This document shows, one piece after another, positions 41,363 through 42,239 of a stretch of 64,000 bases of DNA (position 1 is the stretch's first letter; each line of letters begins with the position of its first letter). The notes under the pieces are model-generated. The model was not told the DNA's origin and ran no database searches. It saw only the letters and a program-made list of their open reading frames with translations. The stretch comes from an uncultured Prevotella sp. (GTDB lineage: Bacteria; Bacteroidota; Bacteroidia; Bacteroidales; Bacteroidaceae), in contig CALEKA010000064.1 of the NCBI GenBank assembly GCA_937898715.1, forward strand, positions 17 to 64,016, read 5' to 3'. The translations under genes were made by a program, and so were the position numbers.

Positions 41363-41394
41363 CAAAAGTAGAAAATGATTCTGAGAGATGCAAA
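41363..41394 (-). promoter_or_regulatory. Consensus sigma-A promoter for the TonB_C gene; -33 box supplied by the repeat element end
   Basis: Minus strand TTTG-N20-TACTTTTG. Confidence 0.75.
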
Positions 41395-42239
41395 AAGAGT
41401 GAACAATTTGTACACTTTTTCTTCGGTAGCATGTGTAAGTTGGGGATGGTGAAGGGTAAGGGGATTTGGCGGGGAGAATGTGCGGTTCTGACCGGTATTC
41501 TCAACTGCTCTCTCGCGCGCGTGCGTTACAGACGATTTTTGTTAGGAAATGCCCTTATCTTGTACTTTCTGCTTGTAAACACATGAGAATGAGTGGTTTG
41601 TGTGAGTGAGGGTACGCGATTTATTCCTCACTTTGCTTGCACTTGCTGTCACTCGGTCGTTTCCCATGGGAAGCTGAGGTCTTGATCGTGGGAAGCGGAG
41701 GAATTAGTCGTGGGCGGAGAAAAAATTAGTCGTGGGAAGCGGAGAAATTAGTCGTGGGTGGAGAAAAAATTAGTCGTGGGAAGCGTCAGAACTAATCGTG
41801 GGAAGTGGAAAAATTGTTTGCGGGGAGAGTATTGTTGAAATTGAGTGGGAGCATGAAGACGGATGATGGGGCGCTCGCGTGGTCTTGAAGTAGCGTATTG
41901 CGGAGAGGATGGGGGGGGAGAAAAAGGGGAGGGTATGGGGAGCGCCTTCTGTTTATACTTGGCAAGAATGTGTGTGCGTCAGTGAGGAAAAAGTGTAGGC
42001 AAAAAGGTGCGCTTTCATTGTGCATCTGCTTGATAATCAATGCGAAATGCTATTCGGAGTGAGGGGCGCAGGATATTTGGACTGAAAATTGACTGAAGCG
42101 TGCGCGCGTATACGCGTGAGAGGAAGCGGTGGGAGGGGAGGGTAGGTGCGTGGAAGTGGGGAGGTGGCGAACGGGGTTGGCGGGGAGCATGGTGAGGGGG
42201 TGAATGCAGAAAAAGTGTACAAATTGTTCACTCTTTTTG
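41391..42239. repeat. Symmetric non-coding element, copy 3 (complete, both terminal palindromes)
   Basis: CAAAAAGAGTGAACAATTTGTACACTTTTTCT and its exact reverse complement ending at 42239. 22-bp array 41664-41815, (RY)n tracts, GTGTAGGCAAA and TTGATAATCAA. Confidence 0.85.

Follow-up and report, generated by a model that had tools for sequence, protein, structure and literature searches.

Dispersed modular repeats such as repetitive extragenic palindromic (REP) sequences and bacterial interspersed mosaic elements (BIMEs), BOX, Correia elements and BrickBuilt are common, and their use to the host is rarely clear. BrickBuilt of Porphyromonas gingivalis is described by Klein et al. (2015, PMC4596501) as a MITE (miniature inverted-repeat transposable element) that is always intergenic, carries a 23-nt minisatellite between a leader and a tail and is present in 19 copies. 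Here we describe a family of non-coding elements with two inverted homologous arms and a central 22-bp tandem array, four copies of which lie in a 64,000-nucleotide stretch of contig CALEKA010000064.1 (C64) of an uncultured Prevotella sp. (assembly GCA_937898715.1); this whole stretch is called the window, and its coordinates are those of the contig minus 16. On the evidence of its sequence, the family is best explained as a modular repeat of intergenic regions, restricted to one genus, that does its work as duplex DNA. It probably serves the architecture of the chromosome and is not debris left by transposons, and the fuller reading that we favour, an old non-autonomous element kept by the host as a protein-bound DNA module, has in our estimate about an even chance of being correct. 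A full-text search of the literature outside subscription journals turned up BrickBuilt and papers of a general kind, but no account of this family.

Family size and arm architecture

The original prediction, made from the letters of the window, was of four copies sharing one order of modules: a terminal palindrome, an alternating purine/pyrimidine tract, inner boxes and a central array, followed by the same modules inverted. This observation is confirmed by the excess of palindromes, the 22-bp arrays, the presence of the named boxes and the alignment of a profile beyond the palindrome. Allowing three mismatches, the palindrome has seven strand matches at six sites (185, 752/755, 27495, 41391, 42210 and 55268), against an expectation of 0.00 from 100 shuffles. 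Tandem Repeats Finder returned period 22 at 27722-27797 (3.5 copies), 41686-41815 (5.9) and 55468-55588 (5.5) and a degenerate array in copy 1 (488-546, 2.4 copies), bearing out what had been said of the arrays. The alternating tracts, TGATWATCA and the TGCYTRCAC boxes were found in the claimed order, and an arm hidden Markov model (HMM) aligns all eight window arms well past the palindrome with E-values of 1e-14 to 1e-48; failure of the four copies to align there had been named as grounds for giving up the shared architecture. The absence of a credible open reading frame (ORF) also stands, as none of the seven ORFs of 81-116 aa that overlap the elements has a Pfam family (E <= 0.01). At the Rfam gathering score the window holds only two tRNAs and a SAM-II riboswitch, none of them inside the elements.

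The whole genome (G000; 2.95 Mb in 121 contigs, 48% GC, 95.5% complete, with genes called throughout by longest-ORF heuristics) gave 233 nhmmer matches to the arm profile. These represent 74 paired elements and 11 arms that stand alone, several of which lie at contig ends. The predicted copy number is right for the window, and the genome-wide scan takes it to about 85, far beyond that count. The elements have a median length of 542 bp and make up ~2% of the genome, across which 51-54 palindrome sites were counted.

Read inwards, the outermost module, which about 60% of elements have and on one arm only, is a TGCAAAGnTA box followed after ~20 nt by the palindrome, which ends in CTGC. A pyrimidine-rich spacer of varying length follows, the distance from palindrome to tract being 15 to 52+ nt across the family, and then the alternating tract of 12-26 bp. 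Inward of the tract lie ATTACAG-N-TTTT, one or two CACT boxes and TGATWATCA with a TT four bases later, and the arm closes with an inverted GTGYARGCA, 9 bp, two to four direct TGCYTRCAC boxes at 11 bp and then the 22-bp units. From the alternating tract inwards the second arm is the mirror of the first. The distances between boxes are rigid while the spacer sequence is almost randomised: CAG..TTTT and TGATWATCA are 55-57 nt apart in 91 of 104 arms, TGATWATCA and the inverted box 21-22 nt in 40 of 41, and TGATWATCA and the first direct box 38-40 nt in 79 of 115, the rest being mostly one 11-nt step off; the gap of the inverted TGCYTRCAC pair is 9 nt in 42 of 48. Mean column identity among the arms of the genome is 43%, and near-identical paralogs are absent. 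Period 22 gives the best central autocorrelation in 66 of 74 elements. In a more distant congener (G162, L055:1120-1340) the 11-bp boxes of one arm have expanded to an array of ~200 bp with a 22-bp super-period, which suggests that central arrays can arise from box repeats.

The mirror symmetry of the original prediction held in part. The arms are indeed inverted and homologous, and they fall into two types, A and B, which leave-one-out scoring separates in 46 of 51 palindrome-linked arms and 38 of 45 partners; the element therefore has polarity and its symmetry is only approximate. The palindrome, taken earlier as the terminus at both ends, does not have that place: copies 2 and 4 carry it on the left arm only, and in the family 45 of the 74 elements have one, 26 have none, and the remaining 3, namely copies 1 and 3 of the window and an element on contig C44, have two. 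Nor is it the end of the element, as the conserved unit extends ~30 bp further out, to the TGCAAAGnTA box. It is an accessory of one arm and not a terminal inverted repeat, and the alternating tracts mark the limits of the core. A search for relics of the palindrome next to arms that lack it gave no clear signal (3 of 95 flanks versus 2.6 in shuffles with up to two mismatches; 25 versus 18.2, maximum 24, with up to three).

Purifying selection on boxes, distances and tract alternation

The evidence that carries our reading comes from a sister species, a genome of the same genus (G007) with 37 palindromes, in which 35 loci around palindromes were compared. An arm in the same orientation was found at the syntenic locus of G000 for 62 of 65 G007 arms, and the three others lie at G000 contig ends or are weak. 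As a neutral yardstick we used identity at four-fold sites, which is 0.746 (11,315 sites in 64 flanking gene pairs). Ortholog identities by module are as follows.

Palindrome: 0.96-0.97, the same whether it faces a gene 5' or 3' end; choosing loci by their intact palindromes lifts the neutral expectation to ~0.87, still under the observed 0.96
-7 box: 0.93 and 0.87
ATTACAG..TTTT: ~0.85
TGATWATCA, nine core positions: ~0.9
TGCYTRCAC boxes: 0.76-0.86
Spacers: 0.45-0.7, an underestimate, as the footprint alignments run through the HMM
Arrays: 0.52-0.61

Copy 4 and its G007 ortholog are 81% identical over their entire length, and the ortholog has 3 array units in place of 5.5, with the unit sequence altered in every one, which indicates concerted evolution. 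Together these comparisons of orthologs show purifying selection on the boxes, on the distances between them and on the alternation of the boundary tracts, and they show that the copies have been fixed at the same loci since before G000 and G007 split. The earlier proposal of selection on a protein-bound DNA architecture, as opposed to a recently copied MITE, is upheld by three lines of evidence: the footprints of conservation between orthologs, the fixed distances between boxes, and hairpins that do not covary.

The range of the family is narrow. A sequence-only covariance model of the arm core, with at most 20 candidates scored per genome, matches 31 of 148 genomes of the genus (E <= 1e-5); elsewhere in the order it matches none of 150 genomes, which represent 149 genera. 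The exact palindrome pattern occurs in 35 stretches of named genome records. The title is Alloprevotella sp. for 32 of them; the other three come from a record each under the titles uncultured Prevotella sp., Prevotellaceae bacterium and Bacilli bacterium. Locus occupancy differs between distant members of the genus, in contrast to the sister species. In one such genome (G113) the ortholog of the gene that adjoins C73:143-704 of G000 has next to it an element whose palindrome is a variant, and the frr and C20 loci have no arm though both flanks are syntenic. Another (G155) has an element where C65 of G000 has none; it follows directly on a terminator and starts precisely with the alternating tract, and only one insertion boundary is visible in this comparison. 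At the loci of copies 3 and 4, the neighbours are not the same in two further genomes (G012 and G021). This variable occupancy implies that the element was once mobile, or was at least gained and lost as a block bounded at the alternating tract.

Such a history could also belong to selfish relics, that is, dead miniature transposons without a host role whose grammar is the transpososome architecture of a lost parent, with terminal repeats, a bend site and multiple transposase sites. The elements have the marks of a MITE (inverted homologous arms in 74 elements, small size and no coding capacity), their occupancy varies among distant species, one copy has another foldback repeat nested within it, as is usual for junk DNA, and multiple sites with a bend site are typical of Mu/Tn7-type ends. 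We nevertheless regard this explanation as doubtful. Relics fixed at orthologous loci should decay neutrally, yet the boxes are far above four-fold sites and indels are excluded from them, and the divergence among arms and lack of near-identical paralogs given above also speak against it. Clusters of the TGCYTRCAC box outside elements are absent from the 95.5%-complete genome apart from one pair, so there is no autonomous partner in this genome. Copy 4 had no match in plasmid and phage collections in a distant blastn search, and no target-site duplication is seen at the empty, fully syntenic frr locus of G113 relative to G000, where REP insertions and a 43-nt unique segment blur the site. Of the candidates in the original prediction, the domesticated non-autonomous element is the one finally favoured.

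The boundary tracts are under constraint as well. They are CG-rich alternating runs of at least 12 bp, the sequence criterion for Z-DNA. A survey of prokaryote genomes finds Z-prone patterns generally suppressed (PMC4060949), yet 101 of the 109 CG-rich alternating tracts of at least 14 bp in this genome lie inside one repeat family. In fixed HMM columns beside the ATTACAG anchor, 186 transitions and 30 transversions separate the orthologs, and alternating steps are kept at 88-90% in both species. Alignment in phase inside an alternating tract can show transitions only, so that this ratio restates the kept alternation; a run-based count gave 121:12 and is biased by the choice of the run. The real test is the comparison of transversions with four-fold sites: transitions occur at a rate of 0.197 in the tracts and 0.151 at four-fold sites, and transversions at 0.032 and 0.103, respectively (Fisher p = 1e-16). 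By this measure the tract sequence drifts approximately neutrally, while changes that break the alternation are purged about three-fold.

A more far-reaching proposal is that the elements are topological modules whose boundary tracts are selected purely for purine/pyrimidine alternation. The tracts would flip to Z-DNA as neighbouring transcription, or outward transcription from the element itself, leads to an excess of negative supercoils. Several proteins, assembled in phase into one complex along the arms and the 22-bp array, would read or lock the Z state, and the ~85 elements would be supercoil sinks and domain barriers that tune nearby promoters. We hold this to be unlikely in so specific a form; if true, this would be the first case, among repeat families of bacteria, of selection on Z-DNA potential as such.

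The promoter-palindrome module and its alternatives

Almost every palindrome has a TGCAAAGnTA box ~20 nt to its outside. On the strand that points outwards, the palindrome end reads CTCTTTTTG and TAnCTTTGCA lies 20-21 nt further out, and the strict form TTTG-N20/21-TAnnTT[TC]G is present at 37 palindrome ends, with a spacer of 20 in 30 and of 21 in 7. Housekeeping promoters of Bacteroidetes have the consensus -33 TTTG and -7 TAnnTTTG, separated by about 19-21 nt. We derived the host's own signal from 1,275 upstream regions lying outside elements, where TAnnTTTG occurs 596 times in sense and 296 times in antisense with a peak 20-60 nt before the ATG; 279 of the 596 continue with CA, and 93 of 106 bipartite matches have a spacer of 19-20. 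The element module shares motif, spacer and trailing CA with these host promoters, and differs in that ~50 modules have a near-invariant 30-bp palindrome over the -33, which ordinary host promoters are without. It is thus a predicted Bacteroidetes sigma-A-type promoter directed out of the element, and this fusion of palindrome and putative promoter is among the things that the original prediction overlooked. A scan for sigma-70 promoters gave 0 matches, with a model that is not informative for this phylum.

Genes adjacent to the promoters were tested in 21 of 26 cases, and the 16 with Pfam families, among them frr, a pta-like gene, a P-type ATPase, FloA, TonB_C and MFS, all belong to different and mostly housekeeping families; there is therefore no regulon. 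Downstream of several promoter-palindrome modules, and repeated upstream of frr in two species, are tandem units of a -7 box TATCTTTGCA and a hairpin-forming stretch of ~55 nt (window 41300-41362, G007 L048:2640-2784 and G113 L100:1370-1540), which may be a small RNA or leader cassette.

The palindrome, with its A5/T5 flanks, could instead be a bidirectional intrinsic terminator and the rest of the element functionless. The layout of A-run, stem and T-run fits this idea, 20 of 47 palindrome arms face gene 3' ends, the palindrome is conserved whatever the orientation of its neighbour, and the perfect copies fold strongly at -17 to -19 kcal/mol (z-scores -4.8 to -5.1). The central W-W position, however, can pair in only 19 of 51 sites in G000 and 17 of 37 in G007, leaving 32 of the 51 mismatched with no covariation, and these mismatched palindromes fold at -6 to -9 kcal/mol (z-scores -0.4 to -2.5). 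Three perfect copies have the form of an intrinsic terminator and most palindromes do not; a mechanical terminator scan of copy 3 found none. The conserved -7 box, the arm boxes and their spacing would remain unexplained, and we rate a terminator or insulator alone as somewhat less likely still than selfish relics.

Non-coding RNA genes, with arms or arrays transcribed as structured or antisense RNAs, are improbable. Outward promoters would yield transcripts even where no gene lies downstream, and BrickBuilt regions of P. gingivalis are transcribed (PMC4596501). The Rfam search at gathering score, however, gave no match inside the elements, the conserved parts lie upstream of the promoter and not downstream, and the array, at 0.52-0.61, is the least conserved part. 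Compensatory changes are found in neither inverted repeat: in the TGCYTRCAC pair, for example, GTGCAAGCA is combined with TGCCTACAC in 8 arms. The conserved half-sites, the tolerated W, the fixed spacings and the 11/22-bp phasing instead have the look of protein sites on duplex DNA.

Copy 3 is the longest copy because of its own insert between palindrome and alternating tract. Its features are listed here.

41363..42274: copy 3 (nhmmer), a full element with a promoter-palindrome module on each arm; nhmmer arms at C64 41379-41760(+) and 42290-41988(-)
41363..41370, - strand: left -7 box TACTTTTG, predicted outward promoter towards the TonB_C gene 40807-41220(-)
41391..41422: left 30-bp palindrome, in which the outer TTTG on the - strand is the -33 element
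41423..41513, + strand: G-run-rich insert between palindrome and alternating tract, specific to copy 3
41514..41526: left alternating purine/pyrimidine tract, the core boundary
41634..41642, + strand: TGCTTGCAC box, left arm
41686..41815: central tandem array, period 22, 5.9 units
41993..42001, - strand: TGCCTACAC box, right arm
42031..42039: TGATAATCA box, right arm
42099..42118: right alternating purine/pyrimidine tract
42208..42239: right palindrome
42260..42269, + strand: -7-like box CACCTTTGCA of the predicted right outward promoter, which faces the 3' end of the gene 42449-43837(-)

The two inserts of copy 3 (41423-41513 and 42119-42207) both have their G-runs on the + strand and are hence not mirrored; their GGG/GGGG runs have G-quadruplex-like spacing.

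An invertible, phase-variable cassette, in which a recombinase flips the segment between the palindromes, has some support in this copy, where 41391-41422 and 42208-42239 form a 32-nt inverted repeat that is 100% complementary over a distance of 785 nt, and Bacteroidales genomes are rich in invertons. It is very improbable: no more than 3 of 74 elements have two palindromes, inversion would leave the promoter unswitched, as it lies outside the palindromes, and a Pfam scan of 27 neighbouring genes found no recombinase. An iteron-type replication origin or partition centromere, suggested by tandem units of 22 bp as in plasmid iterons, is effectively refuted by ~85 dispersed chromosomal copies beside unrelated housekeeping genes; the unit sequence also varies from copy to copy and from ortholog to ortholog, the neighbours tested include neither Rep nor Par genes, and plasmids gave no match.

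The other three copies, with their HMM extents, are composed as follows.

151..821: copy 1
155-164(-) and 805-814(+): -7-like boxes
185-214 and 752-784: palindromes
222-236 and 696-707: alternating tracts
315-371 and 589-615: boxes
488-546: degenerate array
27461..28021: copy 2
27465-27474(-): -7-like box
27495-27524: palindrome, with no right palindrome
27544-27566 and 27982-28005: alternating tracts
27625-27633 and 27915-27923: TGATWATCA
27722-27797: array
27865-27884: boxes
55230..55837: copy 4
55238-55247(-): -7-like box
55268-55297: palindrome, with no right palindrome
55310-55334 and 55768-55791: alternating tracts
55365-55429 and 55632-55672: boxes
55393-55401 and 55702-55710: TGATWATCA
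55468-55588: array

Beside these elements a second repeat is present, a foldback of ~300 bp that forms a long hairpin with ends of GGGCTTTCAGCCC type, at window 1-45, C101:14830-15140, C44:29830-29893 and on C12; one copy is nested in the C101 mirror element and another abuts copy 1 at the start of the window. REP-like clusters of GC-rich hairpins (window 27270-27425 and 55040-55215, also G000 C69, C44 and C47 and G007 loci) have a 9-bp stem of GCCGACGCG / CGCGTCGGC type with a GTTCTGTGGG tail, in both orientations, and often stand between a gene 3' end and a promoter-palindrome module; the sister species shares a stretch of 44 nt without any difference, and there are hundreds of matches in G007, G012 and G021. 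Intergenic arrays of period 22-23 lie outside the arm matches at 11246-11398, 34064-34153, 39933-39997, 40387-40472 and 50309-50420, and arrays of 9-10 bp and 27-29 bp directly follow gene ends at 3329-3470 and 5801-5921. An unbroken run of 32 C (25352-25383) just upstream of the TPR-protein gene 25601-27253 could be a slippage-prone tract or an assembly artefact. Two tRNA genes and then a SAM-II (long-loop) riboswitch (34634-34693) occupy 34349-34693.

Proposed role and comparison with described repeats

In the reading we favour, the family would have originated as a non-autonomous mobile element with polarity, ordered as promoter-palindrome, arm A, 22-bp array and arm B. Each arm would be a stereospecific platform for one or more sequence-specific DNA-binding proteins. 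TGATWATCA-N4-TT resembles an IHF-type bend site and is a candidate for one, many boxes share, as we read them, an AGTG/CACT core, and the inverted TGCYTRCAC pair 9 bp apart, the further boxes at 11 bp and the units at 22 bp would complete the platform. Transcription generates supercoils, as the twin-domain model states, and the two Z-DNA-prone tracts that bracket the platform could absorb negative supercoils from outward transcription, whether from the element's own promoter or from neighbouring promoters. In ~60% of elements one arm ends in the outward TTTG-N20/21-TAnCTTTGCA, presumably an active promoter, and the palindrome would be an operator-like site at about -49 fused to its -33 element. 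The family would then probably serve as a source of promoters and as their insulation, and as a buffer between neighbouring transcription units against the supercoiling that transcription generates.

Several points weigh against this reading, beginning with the fact that binding, promoter activity and Z-DNA formation are all deduced from sequence. The sister genome is only 55% complete, and the choice of loci by intact palindromes, the alignment through the HMM and the in-phase alignment of the tracts affect the comparison in the ways given with the figures above. In crude ORF calls, 27 palindrome arms look towards the start of a gene and 20 towards its end, so that many promoters are without an obvious gene to drive; the promoter module is missing from 26 of 74 elements; and the frr locus has a native promoter downstream of that of the element. 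The hairpin could also be a weak bidirectional terminator.

The comparison of orthologs nevertheless gives clear evidence of constraint on boxes, distances and boundary-tract alternation. The elements account for many large empty intergenic regions and probably for some contig breaks in assemblies of the genus. If they are topological or insulator modules, they would offer a natural bacterial system for the study of Z-DNA and supercoil buffering, together with a set of ~50 promoter cassettes for Bacteroidales, portable and nearly identical, that include an operator-like site.

Among other described repeats, BOX of Streptococcus pneumoniae and the BIMEs and RIPs of Escherichia coli are likewise modular mosaics of short motifs, dispersed between genes and maintained by the host. 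BOX has a tandem middle module, boxB, REP sequences form arrays, and some BIMEs, RIPs and BOX elements carry IHF and gyrase sites. They have no sequence relation to the mirror elements, however, and BOX and REP are held to work mostly by way of RNA or DNA hairpins, whereas no hairpin covariation is seen here; we know of no promoter-fused palindrome or Z-prone boundaries in BOX, BIMEs or RIPs. Correia elements of Neisseria (CREE/NEMIS) have inverted ends that make outward promoters and an internal IHF site, and lie beside many unrelated genes whose expression they affect. Unlike the present family they are 100-155 bp long, with a TA duplication and no tandem array, and from copy to copy their ends hardly differ; part of their action is as RNase III hairpins. 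BOX, BIMEs/RIPs and Correia elements are functional analogues only.

BrickBuilt is nearer. It is, like the mirror elements, a repeat of Bacteroidales that is intergenic, has a spacer-less minisatellite of ~22-23 nt and variable copy number between flanks, lacks one flank in many copies, has an outward promoter (in its leader) and is confined in range to a species or genus. Other features set the two apart. The period is 23 there and 22 here; leader and tail are unrelated there, in contrast to the inverted homologous flanks here; an IS5-type 12-nt end is present there and has 0 matches here, with up to one mismatch, within 150 bp of any element; the copy numbers are 19 and ~85; and neither alternating-tract boundaries nor a 30-bp palindrome fused to a -33 element are described for BrickBuilt. 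The arm model matched none of the 150 other genomes of the order, among which P. gingivalis was not confirmed to be sampled. Judged by its modules, BrickBuilt is the closest known element, and the mirror elements form a family outside it.

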